Virus record (IMG/VR): IMGVR_UViG_2061766007_000727
Origin: an uncultured virus (IMG/VR IMGVR_UViG_2061766007_000727)
Taxonomy: Duplodnaviria > Heunggongvirae > Uroviricota > Caudoviricetes
Length of the DNA stretch: 64,000 nt
Direction: 5' to 3' (one strand)
Part shown: one piece after another, positions 10,706 through 53,342 of the stretch
Position numbering within the stretch: position 1 is the first letter of the stretch
Layout of the letters: each line of letters starts with the position of its first letter
The notes under the pieces: generated by a model
Database searches by the model: none
Seen by the model: only the letters and a program-made list of their open reading frames with translations
What the model was told of the DNA's origin: nothing
Made by a program: the position numbers and the translations under genes

Positions 10706-10868
10706 AGTTGTGCAAGGCACAGTCTTGGTAAGAACAAAGTTATTCTGTTTGATTAAGACGCAGGACGGAGGGTACGCACTCATCAACAAGAAACAACTTA
10801 AAAACAACAACGATGATTCAGACAACGACAAACGGACACAATCTCATTCTGATACAGAACAAGGATGA
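10680..10868 (+). CDS. Small hypothetical protein
   Basis: ATG at 10680; overlaps both neighbours. Confidence 0.45.
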   Translation: MVFQFKNNEVVQGTVLVRTKLFCLIKTQDGGYALINKKQLKNNNDDSDNDKRTQSHSDTEQG

Positions 10869-13395
10869 GTTGTACGATATTATTGACAATAATGACCACA
10901 AGTCAATCTCAATAAACGTTGAGACAACAGGGTTCGACTACATCAAGGATTATATAGTTGGTGTGTCGGTGGGTATAGAGCGTGTCGATAATTCAATTGA
11001 TTCGTATTACATACCATTACGGCACAAGAACTATGGTGCGAACATAGACACCGAGCCTGTGTTCACGTTCATCCAACACCTTATAGACAATGAGCGGATT
11101 CTATTCTTCAATAGAGTGTTCTCGTTTTTCTTTCTTGAGAAGGAAGGAATCAAGTGCGCACTAAACAAGACGCACGATGTGCAGATAATGCTTTATCTTG
11201 CAACAAGCAAGTCGTGTCCTTCAAGGAATGAGTATGCGAGGTTGTTCATACCAAACGTGGATATATTCGACTTGGATTTCAGCAAGCAGAATTTCAGTGA
11301 GTACAACCCAGAGAACGCATATATCTTCTCCGCACAGAAGGCGGTTATAAACATACTGCTTGGTGCGTATGTGTGGGAGAAATACGATATGATACACAAC
11401 ATCTATCTGTTGGACAACAAGTCAAACGAGGTGGTGCGTTGGTTCTGTAAGAACTCCGAGATGTGCGTGGATTACGATTACATCAAAGCGCAGTATGAGA
11501 AAGTGAACTTTGAGATTGAGAACATCAAGTCGCAGATAAAGAGCATAGCAGGGTTTGAGATTGATATTGACAACCAAGCAACGTTATTACAATCGTTGAA
11601 GGATTTGAGAATAGTTGGTAGTGGTGTCGAGAGTATGAACAATGTCTATCTTGATGACTACAACCATCCGATAGCAAGGTTGTTGTATCTGTACGAGAAG
11701 AAACACAAGCCGTACAAGGCATCGCTTGAGAACATATTAGCCAACGATGGTAGGAACTTGAAACTGCGTTATTCAACCGTTACCGCATCCACAGGCAGAC
11801 TTACAAGCGGACACTCAAAGGACAACTCGTACTTCTCTGATTTCAACGCACAGAACGTTGGAAAGACGGAGATGGTACGATACGTTCACAAAGGTGGTGA
11901 CATCGGATTCTACGTTGACGATAACGCAGATGGTGCAGTTAAGGAAATCAAATGCAAAGGTGGATTGAGAGACGCTTTCGTGTGTCCGAGCGATGAATAC
12001 GTGTGGGTTTCGTGCGACTATAGCGGAGAGGAGATGTGTCTGCTTGCCAATTTCAGCAAGGAAATGAACTTGATTGAGCCGATAAAACGTGGAGAGGATA
12101 TTCATACATTCGTAGCGAGGAACATATTCGGAATAGAGAGCAGTGAGTGCAGAAGCAAGACAAAGGCACTCAATTTCAGTGTGGTGTACGGAATGGGTAA
12201 TTACAGATTAGCAAAGAATCTTGGCATTTCGATTGAAGAATGTGAGAAACTGCTGAAAAAATACTATGGGTTATTACGTGGTGTGGCTATTTGGAAAGAT
12301 AAGATGATAGCCAAAGCGAGAAGGCAAGGTTACGTAAGCACGTTGTTCGGAAGACCGAGAATGTTGTTCAACGAGTACCAAAGCACCAACAGAGCAGACC
12401 ACAACGCTGCCGACAGAGCAGCCTGCAACTCACCCATTCAAGGTTGCACACCACTGAACGGACATCTTGAGACGAAGGATTCCGCAGTGCGTATTAAGAA
12501 CTACGTGGGAAGGAGTGTTGTAGGTGCAGACGGAAGGGGGTTGATACTCACCCATCGTGGGGAGAGCCAACCATTGTTCTGTCTGTTCAAGAGCGGTGAC
12601 TATTTGATTTGTGACAACAACCACCAACTTGTTTACAACAATATGAAAAAACCGAAGGTAACAAGTGTGAGAAACGGATACCGAGACGGAAGGGTTATGT
12701 TGTCGAAGTTACAAAGAAAATCGTTCAAGTTGAGCAGATTCTTCTTCAAGAGTTTTTCCGACTGCAAGGCGTTGTTCACTATGTCGTGCAAGCGAGACGA
12801 TGTGATAAAGAAAACAAACAAGGACATCAATAGTGCGTTATTGAGACTTGCGTTGAGTTGGAAGTGGTTCAAGGCTGACTACGATGCCGCAATCAGTATG
12901 AGAAGTGTTGCGAGTGTGTTCGGCTACAACGTGGTGTATAGTGCGAGAAAGGACAAGTTCAAGGTTAGATTTTGGAGAAGAAGGAAAAGCGGAATAAAGA
13001 GTATATGGTGGTGTTTTGAGGATGACAGACGAGTTCCTGTGGGGACTTGTACCGCAACGAAGGGATACCAGATGTACGTCAATCAAGGCTTTTGGAACAA
13101 GAACACAGGTGCGGACATAATGAGGATTGTTCTATGCAAGTTTAAGGATTTGTTTGATAAAGATACAGAGTGGGCGGAGAATGTGAAGTTCGTTTGTTCC
13201 GTTTACGATGAGTGCAACTTCTACGTTAAGAAAAGTTACTTGGAGAAGGGGTGCAGGAAGATTTACGAGACTATGTATTTTACTCACCCTTTATGTATAT
13301 TACCCATTAAAGGTGTTGTATCAATAGGAATAGATTGGGGTCATTTAATGGAAGTTGATATTGACAAAATTAAAGATAATAAAGTGTTATTTTAA
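10813..13395 (+). CDS. polA: Family A DNA polymerase with an intein; last 42 codons supplied by the inserted element
   Basis: TGRLTS, motif A CDYSGEE, motif B KALNFSVVYG, NSPIQG/TGADI, motif C VYDE. Confidence 0.95.
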   Translation: MIQTTTNGHNLILIQNKDELYDIIDNNDHKSISINVETTGFDYIKDYIVGVSVGIERVDNSIDSYYIPLRHKNYGANIDTEPVFTFIQHLIDNERILFFNRVFSFFFLEKEGIKCALNKTHDVQIMLYLATSKSCPSRNEYARLFIPNVDIFDLDFSKQNFSEYNPENAYIFSAQKAVINILLGAYVWEKYDMIHNIYLLDNKSNEVVRWFCKNSEMCVDYDYIKAQYEKVNFEIENIKSQIKSIAGFEIDIDNQATLLQSLKDLRIVGSGVESMNNVYLDDYNHPIARLLYLYEKKHKPYKASLENILANDGRNLKLRYSTVTASTGRLTSGHSKDNSYFSDFNAQNVGKTEMVRYVHKGGDIGFYVDDNADGAVKEIKCKGGLRDAFVCPSDEYVWVSCDYSGEEMCLLANFSKEMNLIEPIKRGEDIHTFVARNIFGIESSECRSKTKALNFSVVYGMGNYRLAKNLGISIEECEKLLKKYYGLLRGVAIWKDKMIAKARRQGYVSTLFGRPRMLFNEYQSTNRADHNAADRAACNSPIQGCTPLNGHLETKDSAVRIKNYVGRSVVGADGRGLILTHRGESQPLFCLFKSGDYLICDNNHQLVYNNMKKPKVTSVRNGYRDGRVMLSKLQRKSFKLSRFFFKSFSDCKALFTMSCKRDDVIKKTNKDINSALLRLALSWKWFKADYDAAISMRSVASVFGYNVVYSARKDKFKVRFWRRRKSGIKSIWWCFEDDRRVPVGTCTATKGYQMYVNQGFWNKNTGADIMRIVLCKFKDLFDKDTEWAENVKFVCSVYDECNFYVKKSYLEKGCRKIYETMYFTHPLCILPIKGVVSIGIDWGHLMEVDIDKIKDNKVLF
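12445..13104 (+). mobile_element. Intein (220 aa) in PolA
   Basis: Interrupts NSPIQG|TGADIMR; begins with Cys, block B CDNNH, ends WNKN followed by Thr. Confidence 0.85.
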
Positions 13396-14682
13396 TTTTT
13401 TATGTTATATTTTGTTTTTAACATAAATTTTGTATTTTTGTAGTGTAATTATCATTTACACTAATGATACAAATGTTTACATACCAATATAAGTTAAAAC
13501 CCACAAAGGAACAAAGGATTCTTTTGGCGAAACATTGTGGGGCAATGAGATTTGTTTGGAATAGGTATTTGAATCAAAGAGTGGAAATATATAGAAATGA
13601 AAATCGTTGTATAGGTTATTATGACCAATGCAAGGATATTACATTGTTAAAGAAACAAGATGAGTTTAAGTGGTTAAGAGAAATAAATGCACAATCCATT
13701 CAACAATGTCTTGACCAACTTGATACTGCGTTTGGTAGATTTTTTAAAAAAAAAGCCAAGTTTCCTAATTTTAAAAATAAATCAAATGGTGGTAGTTTTG
13801 TTATACCACAATATGTTTTTTTAAAAGATAATAAAATATATTTCCCTAAATTTAAAGAGGGAATCAAACTTATATTACATAGAAAGTTTGAATGTGAGAA
13901 AATATGCTATTGTACCATAAAGAAAAGAAACGATGATTACTATGCTTTTATTTCAGTACAAAAAGACATACAACCATTAGAAAAGACAGGTGCGATAGTT
14001 GGTATTGATTTGGGTATAAAAGATATTGTTATTACATCAGATGGAAAAAAGTTTGATAATCCGAAAGCGTTGGAACGATATGAGAAACGTTTGCAACATT
14101 ATCAAAAGAAATTATCCAGACAAATAAAGGGTAGTAAGGGTAGAGAAAAAACACGTAAACATCTTTCAAGGGTACACGAAAAAATATCCAATCTTCGTAA
14201 TAATGCTATTCATAACATTACAACTCAACTTGTACGAGAAAATGATGTTATTGTAATGGAAGATTTGAACGTTGAAGGAATGTTAAAAAATCACCATTTG
14301 GCAAAGGCTATTGTTAATGTATCATTTTCAAGAATAAAAAGACAACTTGAATATAAATGTCAATGGTATGGTAAAAAACTGATAAAGATAGACAGATGGT
14401 TTCCAAGCAGCAAGACTTGTAATTGTTGTGGTTACATCAACAACCACCTTACACTCAATGATAGAGTGTGGGAGTGTCCGCAATGTGCGTCTAAAATAGA
14501 CAGAGATATAAATGCCGCAAAGAACATCAGAGATGAAGGTTTGCGGCAGGAAAATAGGGTGGCAACCACCCAAATTAACGATGATGGAGTGGAAGGTAAG
14601 ACTACACCGAACTACGAGTTAGTTGAAGGTAATGTAGCCACAATGAAGTCATAAATCTTTTTTTTACAAAAAGATAGTTGAT
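13267..14682 (+). mobile_element. IS200/IS605-family tnpB-only element inserted in the polA 3' end, carrying a replacement polA C-terminus
   Basis: Left junction after ATTTAC; right end GAAGTC...ATCTTTTT-TTAC-AAAAAGAT-AGTTGAT; the original polA tail resumes at 14683. Confidence 0.85.
13464..14654 (+). CDS. tnpB: TnpB RNA-guided endonuclease
   Basis: N-terminal HTH region, RuvC GIDLG / MEDL / DRDINAA, CNCCG..CPQC zinc ribbon. Confidence 0.95.
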   Translation: MIQMFTYQYKLKPTKEQRILLAKHCGAMRFVWNRYLNQRVEIYRNENRCIGYYDQCKDITLLKKQDEFKWLREINAQSIQQCLDQLDTAFGRFFKKKAKFPNFKNKSNGGSFVIPQYVFLKDNKIYFPKFKEGIKLILHRKFECEKICYCTIKKRNDDYYAFISVQKDIQPLEKTGAIVGIDLGIKDIVITSDGKKFDNPKALERYEKRLQHYQKKLSRQIKGSKGREKTRKHLSRVHEKISNLRNNAIHNITTQLVRENDVIVMEDLNVEGMLKNHHLAKAIVNVSFSRIKRQLEYKCQWYGKKLIKIDRWFPSSKTCNCCGYINNHLTLNDRVWECPQCASKIDRDINAAKNIRDEGLRQENRVATTQINDDGVEGKTTPNYELVEGNVATMKS

Positions 14683-14702
14683 GATACGATGTATTTCCAA
14701 CA
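14557..14702 (+). ncRNA. Predicted omegaRNA scaffold plus guide (guide from 14683); boundaries approximate
   Basis: GGGTGG-CAA-CCACCC hairpin overlapping the tnpB 3' end and a right-end hairpin, the usual TnpB omegaRNA layout. Confidence 0.65.
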
Positions 14703-14811
14703 TCCGCTTTGTGTGCTGCCGATAGTGGGTAAGTTGTCAGTGGGTACGGATTGGGGACATCTGATGGATATTGAGTTGAATCAAATAGAGAATAACACAA
14801 TTAAAATTTAG
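14683..14811 (+). pseudogene. polA: Displaced original polA 3' end (42 codons plus TAG)
   Basis: Translates DTMYFQHPLCVLPIVGKLSVGTDWGHLMDIELNQIENNTIKI*; 22/42 identical to, and the same length as, the resident tail at 13267-13395. Confidence 0.9.
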
Positions 14812-14816
14812 GACTT

Positions 14817-15095
14817 ATGTTAGAAATTTCAAATATGGACTATAGAGTAGTCAATGGTCAAAAGACTTGGCTAACGTATAAGGAAGGAAACCAAGTGGAA
14901 TGTATAATTGATGTGGCGCAAATTAGAACTATCAAAAGATACGAGTGTAAAGTTTGCGAAGGTAGGGGTTTGAGGGCAAAGTATATCAAAAAAGAAAAAA
15001 CCATTATCGAGTATTTGAATGGTGATGAAATAATTCTTAATTCACCAATATCCAATTTTTTAGAGCCATTGGGAATAAACTTGGATAATTGTTAG
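14817..15095 (+). CDS. Hypothetical protein
   Basis: ORF starts 5 nt after the displaced polA stop; CxxC. Confidence 0.65.
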   Translation: MLEISNMDYRVVNGQKTWLTYKEGNQVECIIDVAQIRTIKRYECKVCEGRGLRAKYIKKEKTIIEYLNGDEIILNSPISNFLEPLGINLDNC

Positions 15096-15301
15096 TTCAG
15101 CATAGCGATAACATCGTCACGCATAACCTTCTGCATAGTGCGTATGAGCATTGCCTTGAAGTTGGGTTGGTTACAAGCAGTCAGAATCATCTTCTCAATG
15201 GTGGGGTAACTGCTATCAATAAGCACACACTCGTCAGTGAAGACGATGAACTCTTTCGCTCTGTCGAGGAAGTCTAAAGCCGTTTGTTTGGTGTCTTGCA
15301 T
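15092..15301 (-). CDS. Hypothetical protein (only plausible minus-strand gene)
   Basis: Fills the gap, convergent stop overlap with the 14817 ORF, AT-rich leader before ATG. Confidence 0.6.
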   Translation of the reverse strand: MQDTKQTALDFLDRAKEFIVFTDECVLIDSSYPTIEKMILTACNQPNFKAMLIRTMQKVMRDDVIAMLN

Positions 15302-15354
15302 AAAATTAAAATTTCGTTTGTAAATATATATTATATTGAATAAAAATTTGATAA

Positions 15355-15978
15355 ATGAAGACGAAATTTTTACTCATATTATCTGGTCTTGTAATGCTAT
15401 TAGGATTAGCGTTGACTTTCACATATATGCGTTTCTGCACCCTTCAAGAGCAGTATAGCAACGCAATGAACAACTACAAGGCTTACGATGAGTTGCTTGC
15501 GAGAAGGTTGGATTCAGCGAATGCGAAAAACTACGAACTGAAACTGACGAAGGAACAACTTGAATACTCGCAGGATAGTGTGATACAGAAACTGAACGAA
15601 GTCAGAAAAGAGTTGAAGATTAAGCAGAAGAATATAGAGCGTTTGGAGTACATATACGAGAACACCATAAGACACGATTCGATATTCTTGTTTGATACTA
15701 TTTTGAGAGATGGTGTGAGCATAGACACCACGTTGGCTGACGAGTGGAGGGTGCTGAACTTGAAACTGATGTATCCGAACAAGATTGATATTAAAACGGA
15801 GTTTCGAAACGAGTTGAGCGTGGTGGTGAGTTCGGAGAAACAGACGATAAACCCACCATCAAAGATTTTCTTTGTGAGATGGTTTCAACGGAAACAAAAG
15901 TTGATAAAGATTGATGTGGTGGATAGCAACCCTTACGCAAGCGTGAAGGAACAGAGATTTGTGGAGATTGTTAAATAA
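15355..15978 (+). CDS. Membrane-anchored coiled-coil protein, spanin-like
   Basis: N-terminal TM plus coiled coil; late promoter; near the holin. Confidence 0.55.
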   Translation: MKTKFLLILSGLVMLLGLALTFTYMRFCTLQEQYSNAMNNYKAYDELLARRLDSANAKNYELKLTKEQLEYSQDSVIQKLNEVRKELKIKQKNIERLEYIYENTIRHDSIFLFDTILRDGVSIDTTLADEWRVLNLKLMYPNKIDIKTEFRNELSVVVSSEKQTINPPSKIFFVRWFQRKQKLIKIDVVDSNPYASVKEQRFVEIVK

Positions 15979-15994
15979 TTTAAATATTAAAGTT

Positions 15995-16459
15995 ATGATT
16001 ATTGATTTGATTTTAGACCGTAGAGATGGCGATACTTACAATCCGAAAGATTTGTATGATTATGCCGTTAGAGCCAATGCTGATGAAATAGCAAGCGCAA
16101 TGGATGGAGGTTCAAATGAAGATATTCAGCAAGCCTTGTGTGATTATGTTGTTTCAAGTCAATATGATGTAGAGGGTGGTGACATTTATAATTACATTCT
16201 ATCAGTAAATTGGTTGGATAATGATTTCGGCACAATATTGATTACGGCACAAAATGACAATACATCTACCTTGTTATATAAGGTAAGTATATCGGATGAG
16301 AATTTTGATTTAGGATTATATCTGCGTGAAAATATGGCATTATTTGATTGGCAACTTGACGATGGTGAGGAAGGTAGTGGCTATGTGCAATATTCTTGCT
16401 ATACAGAAGAAGGCAGTTATCTTTTAGCAAATTATTATCAAGAAGATTTTAATTACTAA
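15995..16459 (+). CDS. Acidic hypothetical protein
   Basis: ATG at 15995; clean ORF. Confidence 0.65.
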   Translation: MIIDLILDRRDGDTYNPKDLYDYAVRANADEIASAMDGGSNEDIQQALCDYVVSSQYDVEGGDIYNYILSVNWLDNDFGTILITAQNDNTSTLLYKVSISDENFDLGLYLRENMALFDWQLDDGEEGSGYVQYSCYTEEGSYLLANYYQEDFNY

Positions 16460-48316: not shown

Positions 48317-49063
48317 ATGGATTTAAAAAAGTTGATGGAAGTTGGTATGGTTGCCAACAAGCGTGTGACGGATTCAGAAATCCGCAAACAACGCATTCTT
48401 GATGCCAAAGCAAAAATGGCAGAGAAACGTGGTGAGGAAGCCACAGGTGAGAAACTTAACCGCATTGGTGATTCGGCTCGTCCGACACGTACCCCAATGC
48501 GAGGTGTAGCACAGAGACGTGCAGTTGCTACACAGGCACGTATGCAAGATAGCCGTGCCAAATCGTATTTCGCACTTCGCAAACGCATCAAAGACGAACT
48601 TGAGGAAACCGAATCGACAGAAGATGCAATCGAGGCAGCAGTAAACGTAATGCAAGAGGAAGCAGTTGAGAATCCTGCTGATGTTATTGCCGCAGTTGTA
48701 GAAGTGTTGGGTGATGTAATGGACACATTACCAGAGGGTGATGGCGAAGCCGCAGAAGAAGGCGGTGCTGATGACTACGCTGACGAATATGAAGACGAGG
48801 TATCGGATTCACTCCGCAAACGTCAAGTTATCCGCAGAAACACAGTAGCAGATGCTCGCAAGCGTGTAGCACTCCGCAAACGTTCAGCAGTTGCTGATTC
48901 TCGCAAACGTGCAGAATTGCGCAAACGAGTATTGGATGCTCTTGCTCGCAAACGTGCCGCACAGAAACGTATCCGTGATGCACGTGAACGCAGAGCAGGT
49001 GTAACTCGCAGAGCAGTCGCTGACAACCAAGTTGCAGGCAAACGCCTTGTAAGACGTGGTTAA
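48317..49063 (+). CDS. Arg-rich/acidic scaffold- or core-like protein with MDLKKLM leader
   Basis: About 11 hydrophobic-x-D motifs; late promoter; strong terminator. Confidence 0.65.
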   Translation: MDLKKLMEVGMVANKRVTDSEIRKQRILDAKAKMAEKRGEEATGEKLNRIGDSARPTRTPMRGVAQRRAVATQARMQDSRAKSYFALRKRIKDELEETESTEDAIEAAVNVMQEEAVENPADVIAAVVEVLGDVMDTLPEGDGEAAEEGGADDYADEYEDEVSDSLRKRQVIRRNTVADARKRVALRKRSAVADSRKRAELRKRVLDALARKRAAQKRIRDARERRAGVTRRAVADNQVAGKRLVRRG

Positions 49064-49086
49064 TACGTTGGGAAAACGTTGAAGAA

Positions 49087-49122
49087 AGGGAGTTGGTTCG
49101 GTTTGAATCAACTCTTTTTTTT
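49087..49122 (+). terminator. Intrinsic terminator
   Basis: AGGGAGTTGGTTC/GAATCAACTCTTT plus T-run. Confidence 0.75.
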
Positions 49123-49130
49123 GTACTTAT

Positions 49131-50400
49131 ATATTCAAAAAGTTATAAAAATGTTTGTGGCTTACAAAAAATATTATACCTTTGTAAAAAAGGTAAGGTG
49201 TGAAAGTTATACACAGAACATATAAGTATAGATTATATCCAAATAAAGAACAAGAACAGATTCTTGCAAAACATTTTGGTTCAGTCCGTTTTGTATATAA
49301 TTATTTCCTTGCGGAACGAAAACAACAGTATGATGAAAAGAGTAAGAGTGATAATTATTATGCTCAAGCAAAAACTCTTACAAAACTTAAAAAACAAGAA
49401 GAATATTCTTGGTTGAATGAAATTAACTCGCAAACCTTGCAGTATTCTCTGCGTTGTTTGGAAACCGCATATACCAATTTCTTTAGTGGTAGAGCGAGAT
49501 TTCCTAAATTTAAGGCAAAAAAACAAGGTGGTAGTTTTAATGTACCACAATATTGTACCATTGAAAATGGTAGGATATATATTCCGAAATTCAAACAAGG
49601 AATAAAAATCAAAGAACATAGAACATTTCAAGGGAATGTTAAAAATATGACAATTTCTGTTACACCAAGCGGAAAATACTATGTTTCCATATTATCCGAA
49701 GTTGAATATGAGCCTATGCAGAAAACCAATGCAAAGGTTGGTATAGATTTAGGTATAAAGGATTTTATAGTGACAAGTGATGGTGTAAGGTGTTCTGGTA
49801 ACAAATTCATTAAACGTTATGAAAAGAAACTTGCGAAAACCCAAAAAGTTTTGTCAAGAAAGACTAAAGGTTCTAATGGGTGGAACAAAATGCGTTTGAG
49901 AGTTGCGAGAATACAGGAGAAAATACATAATTGCCGTATGGACAAATTGCATAAGATTTCCACCGATTTGGTAAGGAAATATGATGTAATTTGTTGTGAG
50001 GATTTGAATGTGAAGGGTGTGCAGAAAAACCATAGACTTGCCCAAAGCATAGCAGATGCAAGTTGGGGAACATTCTTGAATTTACTTTCGTACAAATGTG
50101 ATAGAGAAGATAAACAACTTATAAAAGTTAGTCGTTTCTATCCATCATCAAAAACTTGTCATCACTGTGGTTATGTAAAAGAAGATTTGTCATTGGATGA
50201 TAGAATTTGGGAATGTCCTAAATGCGGAAGTTTGATTGACCGTGACTTGAACGCTTCAATCAATATTCTAAACGAAGGCATTAAAAACATATCGGCAGGG
50301 ACTGTCGATTACACAGGTGGAGATGATGTAAGACTTGCTTGCAAGCAATTGTCTGTGAAGCCTGAAGCCCATAAATTTTTAGTTTGTGGGTAGTTTTCAT
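49131..50400 (+). mobile_element. IS200/IS605-family tnpB-only element inserted in a late promoter
   Basis: Right end GAAGCCCATAAA...TTTGTGGGTAGTTTTCAT; removing 49131-50400 restores ACTTATATATTATATT; junctions share ATATATT, so ends are uncertain by a few nt. Confidence 0.75.
49200..50393 (+). CDS. tnpB: TnpB RNA-guided endonuclease
   Basis: GIDLG, CEDL, CHHCG..CPKC, DRDLNAS. Confidence 0.95.
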   Translation: MKVIHRTYKYRLYPNKEQEQILAKHFGSVRFVYNYFLAERKQQYDEKSKSDNYYAQAKTLTKLKKQEEYSWLNEINSQTLQYSLRCLETAYTNFFSGRARFPKFKAKKQGGSFNVPQYCTIENGRIYIPKFKQGIKIKEHRTFQGNVKNMTISVTPSGKYYVSILSEVEYEPMQKTNAKVGIDLGIKDFIVTSDGVRCSGNKFIKRYEKKLAKTQKVLSRKTKGSNGWNKMRLRVARIQEKIHNCRMDKLHKISTDLVRKYDVICCEDLNVKGVQKNHRLAQSIADASWGTFLNLLSYKCDREDKQLIKVSRFYPSSKTCHHCGYVKEDLSLDDRIWECPKCGSLIDRDLNASINILNEGIKNISAGTVDYTGGDDVRLACKQLSVKPEAHKFLVCG

Positions 50401-51989: not shown

Positions 51990-53342
51990 ATGGCAGACAA
52001 GAGAGTTGTAGATTATAGCATTGAGGATTATAATAAGGATGACACCTATTTGGTGGGTGTCAAGAACGCTATGGTAAAGCGTATCCGTATGGGTAATGTT
52101 ACGAGCGTGAGTGCTAATCCTTCTACCACACCGACTGAATCGCTTAACTCCATTGAGATAGGTGGTGTAAGTTATAGTGTGGAAGGTGGTGGTGGAAACG
52201 TTGATGTTGACACCGAGCGTGGTTGGTTGCTTGTNNNNNNNNNNCGCTCGTAAACGTGCCGCACAGAAACGTATCCGTGACGCACGTGAACGCAAAGCAG
52301 GTGTAACTCGCAGAGCAGTCGCTGACAACCAAGTTGCAAGCAAACGCCTTGTAAGACGTGGTTAATACGTTGGGAAAACGTTGAAGAAANNNNNNNNNNG
52401 AGTTATAGTGTTGAAGGTGGTGGTGGTGGAAACGTTGATGTTGACACCGAGCGTGGTTGGTTGCTTGTTTCGGAGGGCGGACACAATTATTTCGCACCGC
52501 TTACCGAACTTGTAGCACCGAACAAGCCTACCATTTCGACCACTACATATTATGTGGTTACAGGTAACGCAAGTGTTTCCGTTTCTTCATCCACAAGTGG
52601 TGCGAGTGTGTCTTACAAGGTTGATGACGGAAGTTGGACTAATGGTTCGACCATCACGCTTGCGAGTGGATTCCAGAACAACACAAGCAACACCGACAAG
52701 CAGTACACTATTCAAGTGAAGGCTACAAAGAACGGAGTGGAGAGTGGTGTCAACTCGTACACTATCACAATCAAGCCGAAAGTTGCGGCAGGCAGTCTGT
52801 CTGTAACTCGCACACCTAACAATAATGATTGGGCAACGCAAGCGACAATCACATTCACCGCTTCGTCTATGAGTGGCACAACAAGCAGATATTCAACCGA
52901 TGGTGGTACAACGTGGACTGCTTTCACAGGTACGCACACCGAGACAATCACAGAATCTGCTGCCGCTAACAAGTTTAGGGTTAAGATTGACAGTGTTGCC
53001 AACTACCAAGACGCATCAGTGGCACAGAGCAGTGCAATCACGCTCAACAAGAAGAAGTTCTACTATGGTCGTGGTGGTGCTACACTTGCCAATGAAGCCG
53101 CAATCAAGGCTCTTGTAGGTGGTGGCAGTGAGGAGAAAGACACAATGGCAGGTAGTTACGATATTACTTCTACCGAGTTGGGACAATTCACTTGGTTCTG
53201 CGGTACGGGAACGCTCACATCTGTTTCTTCAAGCGGATTCGGTGTGCCTATGAACGCAGTGGTTGTGGTAGATGGTTATAACTGCTATCGTTCGGCATCG
53301 CACGTTATGAATTTGGATACAGACACATTTGTAGTTTCGTAA
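51990..53342 (+). CDS. Fibre/adhesin protein broken by an assembly gap (51990 start probably joins the 52461 ORF)
   Basis: VDVDTERGWLL appears on both sides of the gapped insert; C-terminal half paralogous to 53358. Confidence 0.6.

Follow-up and report, generated by a model that had tools for sequence, protein, structure and literature searches.

A TnpB cassette carrying a foreign polA gene end in a rumen phage: a candidate natural RNA-guided home-and-rescue element

We analysed a 64,000-nucleotide stretch of DNA (hereafter the window) from an uncultured virus of the class Caudoviricetes (IMG/VR record IMGVR_UViG_2061766007_000727), in which the 3' end of the DNA polymerase gene polA occurs twice, on either side of a gene for the RNA-guided nuclease TnpB. 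A 1,416-bp block (13267-14682) has been inserted 3' of the motif TTAC in the polA gene of this rumen phage, which probably infects a member of Bacteroidota. The first part of the block is a foreign, AT-rich replacement of the last 42 polA codons that keeps the polymerase whole, and the second is a TnpB cassette without tnpA, in which the nuclease gene is combined with a promoter of its own and a 3' region of structured RNA. Displaced intact, the native polA tail now lies at the right end of the cassette, where its start would be transcribed as the guide of an omegaRNA. We put the probability at about 0.5 that this is a home-and-rescue cassette, in which TnpB cuts the empty polA of co-infecting relatives; the cut allele would be repaired from the occupied genome, copying the spare tail together with the cassette (homing), or would alternatively be lost, harming a competitor. 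Judged from its sequence, the layout is that of a natural cut-and-rescue gene drive. The parts of the locus are listed below.

10813..13395, plus strand: polA open reading frame (ORF), 860 amino acids (aa), with a PF00476 match
10813..13266, plus strand: polA body, residues 1-818, native to the phage lineage (PF00476; identity to relatives)
13263..13266, plus strand: TTAC, the insertion motif and presumed transposon-associated motif (TAM), composed of the T of an Ile codon and the Tyr818 codon TAC (empty allele; TAM by the IS200/IS605 rule)
13267..13395, plus strand: tail1, the foreign AT-rich last 42 polA codons and stop, in frame (GC3, tail comparisons)
13396..14682, plus strand: conserved core of the TnpB cassette, comprising promoter, tnpB, omegaRNA region and right end (alignment of related copies)
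13411..13440, plus strand: motif TTTG-N-TAnnTTTG 5' of tnpB, presumably a Bacteroidota-type promoter (motif scan; consensus assumed)
13464..14654, plus strand: tnpB, encoding 396 aa with intact RuvC motifs and zinc ribbon (Pfam; alignment to ISDra2 TnpB)
14513..14682, plus strand: presumed omegaRNA scaffold, overlapping the 3' end of tnpB (RNA fold; 5' limit approximate)
14655-14675, plus strand: terminal stem ATCTTTTT/AAAAAGAT of the presumed omegaRNA (RNA fold)
14683..14702, plus strand: presumed template of the guide, GATACGATGTATTTCCAACA, formed by the initial 20 nt of tail2 (adjoins the right end; family rule)
14683..14811, plus strand: tail2, the displaced native polA tail, an open frame of 42 codons and stop (empty allele; near-clade tails)
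14817..15095, plus strand: downstream gene, 92 aa, without family assignment, at its native position (ORF list; collinear in the X4 contig to 15977)

Across the insertion site polA reads ...AAG ATT TAC and then, immediately past the insertion point, GAG ACT ATG TAT TTT ACT...; the right end of the element at 14682 is ...TAGTTGAT, and tail2, which begins directly after it, stops 5 nt before the next gene (14817). The two tails had 22 of 42 residues in common (22/40 identical by BLASTP, E 2e-20) and were identical at 77 of 129 nt, with a longest common run of only 8 nt, such that deletion by recombination between them is unlikely. The GC content at third codon positions (GC3) was 0.56 in the polA body and 0.47 in tail2, as compared to 0.19 in tail1 and 0.26 in tnpB. 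The end of polA, the coordinates and lengths of the tails, their 22 identities and the contrast in GC3 had all been described in an initial annotation of this DNA, and each of these descriptions proved accurate.

In order to place the boundaries of the block, we aligned Logan contigs from four bovine-gut sequencing runs to positions 12000-16000 of the window. A contig of 1,993 nt from run X4, which belongs to a different study from the source sample and represents a phage about 95% identical to this one, matched 12578-13266 with its bases 1-689 and 14683-15977 with its bases 690-1984; TTAC was thus followed directly by GATACGATG..., with 13266 joined to 14683. This exact empty allele shows that the insert is one block of 1,416 bp, 13267-14682, lying at a single bond 3' of TTAC, precisely where the initial annotation had placed the insertion. 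No target-site duplication was present and no bases had been lost, as is the case for IS200/IS605 insertions. Diverged contigs in runs X7 and X10, which come from two further studies, likewise lacked the block: in one diverged empty contig 13148 was joined to 14734 with 169 letters between them, and in another exactly 1,416 bases were skipped, from 13290 to 14707. Empty, closely related alleles were present in the same habitat in three other studies. For the source sample, an independent Logan assembly, made from the same reads, yielded a 9,952-nt contig that was identical to the window over 12000-15329 and evenly covered.

Comparison with related polymerases indicated that tail2 is the native tail. 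The 90% cluster of the window polA had seven other members, six of which were full-length, with bodies that differed from the window polA at 17 to 96 of 818 positions. All six carried a single, contiguous tail of the tail2 type (..PIVGKLSVG.DWGHLAD.ELEQ..), and tail1 was confined within this cluster to the window's own protein. A tail1-like end was found in none of the 49 other polA C-termini examined, and a search for short polA fragments with a tail1-type end gave three matches, none of them tail1-like; no relative without tnpB was found to have the 13267-13395 tail, in keeping with what the initial annotation had predicted. Tail2 was identical to the tails of the near clade at 33-37 of 42 residues and tail1 at 22-25 of 42. 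At the DNA level, comparison with locus L014, whose body was 83% identical, gave 88/102 identical nt for tail2 and 66/102 for tail1. The ten polA DNA loci obtained from IMG/VR and JGI each had one tail and no tnpB (0/10 occupied), and an IMG/VR search for close polA relatives returned none with a single-protein query and two 55% loci, without tnpB, with an alignment query.

The left limit of the foreign tract was evident from the relatives as well. The polA body was identical in amino acid sequence to P0181 (562-818), P0182 (629-817) and P0184 (728-817), and identity to the nearest relatives fell to 23/42 beyond residue 817/818, indicating that the foreign tract begins exactly at TTAC. A co-conversion tract reaching to the left of TTAC was ruled out for this phage by the same identity of the body to its relatives. 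As a separate observation, the extreme 3' end of polA was mosaic in one 90% cluster, in which, for example, the C-terminal 15 residues of P0192 and P0194 ended ..ELNQIKNNTIKI and ..DLKQIVNNQINI, respectively.

Tail1 is best described as a gene end imported from an unsampled AT-rich polA lineage. Its best matches were P0009 (30/43) and P0014 (29/42), from clades whose polA is about 56% identical, and when it was searched alone against 1.84 billion representatives P0009 was the sole true match; P0190 and P0191 were rejected as relatives of tail1, being repetitive proteins with chance matches. The GC3 of tail1 lay below that of all nine sampled tails (0.33-0.57) and near that of the cassette. The initial annotation had regarded this segment as a recoded, functional polA tail. 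Function is supported, as the ORF is intact and tail1 retains the family residue at each of the 12 invariant tail columns (23-sequence alignment); the tail lies within the DNA_pol_A domain, the last 96 residues matching profile positions 304-380/381. Recoding is not, as in situ synonymous recoding of tail2 does not account for two tails with only 22/42 residues in common, nor for a tail1 closer to distant clades. The locus consequently presents a foreign C-terminus in frame on a native body, then the nuclease gene, and then the displaced native C-terminus, with the displaced copy nearer to the gene ends of relatives than the inserted copy is.

The polA gene also contains a 220-aa insertion (residues 545-764, 12445-13104) that splits the polymerase domain at profile position 304 and was present in 22 of 22 relatives. 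It is situated between ..NSPIQG and TGADI.., with Cys as its first residue and Asn as its last, followed by Thr. Identification as an intein was not supported, either by Pfam, where there was no match at E up to 10, or by PDB sequences, among which only weak matches to PCNA were obtained (best E 1e-5); a fixed intein-like element and an accessory domain are the candidates. One polA relative, on a 36,223-nt ENA contig, was called as two proteins, P0195 and P0197 (650 and 189 aa), that break within this insertion domain, for which a frameshift, a sequencing error or another insertion are candidate explanations.

The nuclease gene of the block encodes HTH, OrfB_IS605 and TNB domains (Pfam), and residues 5-361 of its product aligned to ISDra2 TnpB (E 1e-61). 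GIDLG (D182), MEDLN (E266) and DRDINAA (D346/D348), which we take to be the motifs containing the catalytic residues, aligned to the ISDra2 motifs, and two CxxC pairs were present. With RuvC D-E-D motifs and a zinc ribbon, the protein has the features of IS200/IS605 TnpB, and judging from these motifs the nuclease looks active. The initial annotation had assigned tnpB a promoter, and the motif TTTG..TAnnTTTG, presumably the Bacteroidota-type promoter consensus, was indeed located 5' of the gene; it occurred at nine sites on the plus strand and none on the minus strand of the window, with one site before each of the window's two tnpB genes. Folding of 14500-14682 gave -44.9 kcal/mol (z -4.3), which none of 200 shuffles equalled, and the terminal stem lies 7 nt before the end of the element. 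Neither an intron nor any other Rfam family was matched in 12500-15500. No tnpA (Y1) or serine recombinase was detected among the 64 plus-strand ORFs of the window, which covers under half of a genome of about 150 kb, so that the earlier statement that neither tnpA nor an intron is visible holds for these regions. The hairpins of the 68-nt left region, in which the promoter lies, were unlike the right-end hairpin, and paired ends of the TnpA type were not found.

The second tnpB of the window (49200-50393) encodes 397 aa that are 48% identical to the first and include HTH, OrfB and TNB domains. It is intergenic, behind the gene at 48317-49063 and a terminator, with TTTG..TAnnTTTG at 49154-49184. 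No duplication of a flanking gene end was detected around it by tblastx, and when the regions to the left and to the right of both tnpB genes were aligned, the promoter-like motif was all that they had in common.

The guide of a TnpB nuclease is described as the flank past the right end of the element, and its TAM as the motif 5' of the insertion (PMC8612924, PMC10690162, PMC13565253). By this rule the target would be TTAC followed by GATACGATGTATTTCCAACA, with a guide taken from the first 16-20 nt of the displaced native tail, and TnpB would cut polA alleles reading TTAC+GATACGATG... in co-infecting relatives; the allele predicted to be cleaved is TTAC+GATACGATGTATTTCC, and the resident allele predicted to be spared is TTAC+GAGACTATGTATTTTA. 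Alignment of the tails confirmed the mismatches between the guide flank and the resident allele, at positions 3, 6, 15, 16, 17 and 18, that the initial annotation had listed. The two TAM-proximal seed mismatches (positions 3 and 6) would protect the resident working allele (TTAC+GAGACTATG...), and the guide template in the phage's own genome is preceded by TGAT rather than by TTAC. The unusual feature of the locus is a spare tail that keeps the invaded gene whole and is also mismatched to the guide.

The sampled alleles of relatives varied at the predicted target. Locus L014 had TTAC and five mismatches to the guide, and loci L020 and L021 had ATAC and one mismatch. A tail start equal to that of tail2 (DTMYFQHPLCVLPIVGKLSVG) was found in only two of 49 protein alleles, P0182 and P0184. 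These two were also the only alleles in which Tyr818 (13264-13266) was replaced, by Phe in P0182 and by His in P0184; it was invariant in the other 47 tails. These changes are a hint that such alleles may have escaped a TTAC-dependent nuclease.

Copies related to the cassette were present in X7 and X10, with DNA approximately 93-95% identical. Their alignment to the window was confined to 13396-13881 and to a second segment that began at 13875 or 14085 and ended at 14683; beyond the two outer ends the sequence was unlike that of the window for 1,054 nt and about 250 nt. As the related copies have sequence in common only from 13396 onward, the conserved core starts right after the stop codon of tail1. 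The initial annotation had treated the spare tail as the left end of the element; this tail does lie within the 1,416-bp insert, but outside the core (13396-14682) that the related copies have in common. Four full-length proteins (P0061-P0064), known as proteins alone, were 94% identical to this TnpB. More distant relatives were found in bacteria and archaea, the best 80 of 239 being 35-45% identical over the full gene, with two partial matches at 53%, and in IMG/VR, where identity did not exceed 41%; a DNA search of INPHARED returned short tnpB matches only. Separately, a contig of 3,035 nt from X1 and one of 1,187 nt from X4 matched the window over 51 nt only (14643-14693), that is, the last 40 nt of the cassette and the first 11 nt of tail2, with eight differences and a 2-nt insertion. 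A cassette that has diverged further, at a polA-like site, may be the source of these matches.

The initial annotation had also suggested that phage genomes be searched for tnpB genes with duplicated gene ends. We compared the upstream flank with the downstream flank at 23 further phage tnpB loci, a screen that recovered the window's own pair as a positive control. None of the 11 IMG/VR loci had a flanking tail duplication, and the 12 INPHARED loci yielded one clear case and four weak matches (E 7e-5 to 0.007), so that the predicted arrangement does recur, at one of the 23 loci. The clear case was Vibrio phage 501E54-1 (OX241455.1; L111 1092-2828), where a spare end, tnpB and a displaced native end follow one another: the gene before tnpB ends ..KPYLKDRALSRKIARESKKSKSTGTIYTVR, and the displaced ..KPYLTQRKEGRKVARELKKAKQASGSESTHITR comes after tnpB. 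A sister phage, Vibrio phage 424E50-1 (OX241437.1; L118 989-1375), has no tnpB and carries the displaced-type end contiguously, which makes it the empty allele. The left flanks of this pair were 82% identical and the right flanks 97.8%; greater divergence on the left would be expected had the cassette brought the left side with it. In 501E54-1 the interval between the spare end and tnpB is only 37 nt, leaving no room for a transposon left end.

We tentatively propose, at a confidence somewhat short of even, that natural RNA-guided home-and-rescue drives form a class of elements present in phages. Such drives would be tnpA-less TnpB cassettes that enter the 3' ends of important genes, supply a foreign gene end immune to cleavage by way of rescue, and use the displaced native end, a functional part rather than debris, as guide template against uninvaded alleles in co-infecting phages. 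They would be able to move behind different gene ends, and their targets would answer by escape at the TAM codon, such as the change of Tyr818 to Phe or His.

A number of observations weigh against the home-and-rescue proposal. Spread of the cassette among polA alleles was not seen: only one occupied polA is known, none of the 49 tails or ten loci from other polA genomes held the same cassette, and in the four-run set all related contigs that spanned the site were empty. A TTAC followed by a perfect match to the guide was present in 0/9 sampled DNA alleles, and the Tyr818 hint comes from two related alleles known as protein only. A guide that matches the empty site is, moreover, automatic for any IS605-type insertion and by that alone shows no drive. 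The spare tail, according to the alignments of related copies, is an add-on outside the conserved core, not shared at 80% or more, and its junction with the cassette, where TTTTAA meets TTTTTT, is not accounted for by the proposal. A clear flanking tail duplication was lacking at 22 of the 23 surveyed tnpB loci. Finally, there was no RNA run containing the stretch among the runs listed.

The most serious of the alternatives is ordinary transposition followed by a recombinational patch, an explanation that would involve no drive between phages and that we consider unlikely. In this scheme a TnpB-only insertion sequence (IS; 13396-14682), with TnpA supplied in trans, hit TTAC and truncated polA, which was then rescued by recombination with an AT-rich relative that had the same IS behind its polA stop codon, through crossovers in polA and inside the IS; TnpB would serve in transposon retention after excision, as in any IS605 element. 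The unit common to the copies is 13396-14682, sharp at both ends and transposon-like, and the left flank of the core (TTTAA) and the site in polA (TTTAC) differ at a single base, such that both could be sites of one IS. Insertion 3' of a tetranucleotide with no target duplication, as in IS200/IS605, and the single known occupied allele are also consistent with transposition. However, two rare events and a transiently dead intermediate would be required. No TnpA was found in the window, the best 80 of 239 bacterial and archaeal TnpB relatives are at most 45% identical over the full gene, and the 68-nt left region contains a promoter and hairpins that do not resemble the right-end hairpin. In addition, the spare-tail layout recurs in an unrelated Vibrio phage, 37 nt from tnpB, which chance patches do not predict.

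Alternatively, TnpB may be kept as a weapon with which co-infecting relatives are excluded through cleavage of their polA, with copying rare or irrelevant. Killing of competitors by phage homing endonucleases has been described (PMC13565253; 10.1101/2023.09.30.560319), the empty alleles of three other studies occur in the same habitat, and the polA alleles examined gave no sign of cassette spread. The same cut would nevertheless trigger repair from the occupied genome as well, which makes the two outcomes hard to separate, and most of the sampled alleles mismatch the guide or lack TTAC; we regard an exclusively competitive role as improbable. Quite improbable, in our judgment, is an inert relic, that is, a recent cassette whose TnpB or RNA is inactive and whose layout has no present function. 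The single occurrence of the cassette, an RNA region with no Rfam match, and the lack of the stretch from the RNA runs listed would suit a relic, but the sequence retains an intact 396-aa ORF with all catalytic motifs and the zinc ribbon, and the 94% identity to four other full-length copies, the promoter motif and the strongly structured 3' region argue for a working element. An assembly chimera, in which reads of two phages were mis-joined at the junctions, is scarcely credible: a scaffolding artefact does occur elsewhere in the window (52235-52400), but the only partly independent Logan assembly of the same sample was identical over 12000-15329 with even depth, and both junctions preserve the reading frame and agree to the base with the empty allele.

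That artefact involves a 144-bp piece at 52246-52389, between two N10 gaps, that is 97% identical to 48944-49087, where the gene immediately preceding the second tnpB has its 3' end. Its flanks are duplicated, 52185-52234 being equal to 52419-52468 (region 52170-52468), and it breaks an ORF that is otherwise continuous over 51990-53342; these features suggest that the piece derives from a strain variant and was introduced by faulty scaffolding. All predicted genes of the window (1-64000) are on the plus strand, and they include those for a DnaB-type helicase, RtcB, a DNA ligase, a radical SAM protein, a T4-like portal protein, a BspA-type leucine-rich repeat (LRR) protein and a protein bearing a sorting domain for type IX secretion. 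Contigs of relatives extend up to about 140-158 kb, and the runs with matching sequence are bovine gut metagenomes.

Cas12 descends from TnpB, a nuclease whose natural role is under active study. For TnpB itself, retention after excision and gene drive in plasmids have been shown, and spread from phage to phage has only been proposed. If the home-and-rescue proposal is correct, an RNA-guided nuclease can colonise coding sequence with neither intron nor intein, by means of a diverged spare gene end, and the persistence of displaced gene ends beside phage tnpB genes would be explained. The locus would also represent a parallel in nature to engineered designs in which a guide that targets an essential gene is paired with a recoded copy for rescue. 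The idea could be tested directly with few constructs based on the target and immune sequences given here. Our search of the literature, which did not extend to supplements, returned no account of a TnpB cassette accompanied by a spare gene end.

Parts of this arrangement have counterparts in known systems. Phage 21 and e14, which integrate into icd of E. coli with a substitute 3' end of the target gene, are similar in supplying a diverged 3' gene end and displacing the original; they differ in using a site-specific recombinase within a duplicated segment, and in residing in a bacterial chromosome. The TnpB-omegaRNA elements of the IS200/IS605 family (ISDra2; Karvelis 2021, PMC8612924; Meers 2023) resemble the polA cassette in their homologous nuclease, in insertion 3' of a short motif with no target duplication, and in a guide that comes from the flank past the right end and has the empty site as its target. 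Unlike them, the polA cassette lacks recognisable paired hairpins at its ends and is accompanied by no TnpA within the window, and it lies inside the coding region of a polymerase, accompanied by a replacement gene end. An IS605 TnpB gene drive in plasmids, in which spread independent of TnpA results from the cutting of empty copies, has been reported (Mears 2025, PMC11870625), and homing of TnpB into co-infecting phages was called theoretical in a 2026 review (PMC13565253).

The intronless homing of T4 SegF, SegG and Mob is similar in that a nuclease gene beside a conserved phage gene cuts the rival allele, the resident allele escapes by nearby sequence differences, and flanking markers are co-converted (PMC13565253); it differs in that DNA is recognised by protein contacts and, as far as that source describes, no duplicated gene end is left. 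Engineered home-and-rescue and cleave-and-rescue drives (HomeR, PMC7968924) likewise direct an RNA-guided nuclease against an essential gene and provide a cleavage-immune rescue copy, but these are synthetic Cas9 systems in insects, whereas the polA cassette is natural, employs TnpB and has putative activity. A similar layout is found in the mORFs of fungal mitochondria, which insert a foreign gene C-terminus, as in atp6 of Allomyces macrogynus (Paquin 1994) and atp6, atp9, cox2 and nad3 of Glomus (Beaudet 2013; PMC3630166). There, too, a native body is followed by an inserted foreign C-terminus in frame, an endonuclease gene and the displaced native C-terminus, the native copy is nearer to relatives than the inserted copy, and the acquisition is read as horizontal transfer (PMC3630166). 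The mORF nuclease, however, is a protein-only homing endonuclease in an organelle and the displaced tail is debris, whereas at the polA locus the nuclease is RNA-guided, the genome is that of a phage, and the displaced tail, at the position of the guide template, would be a working part.

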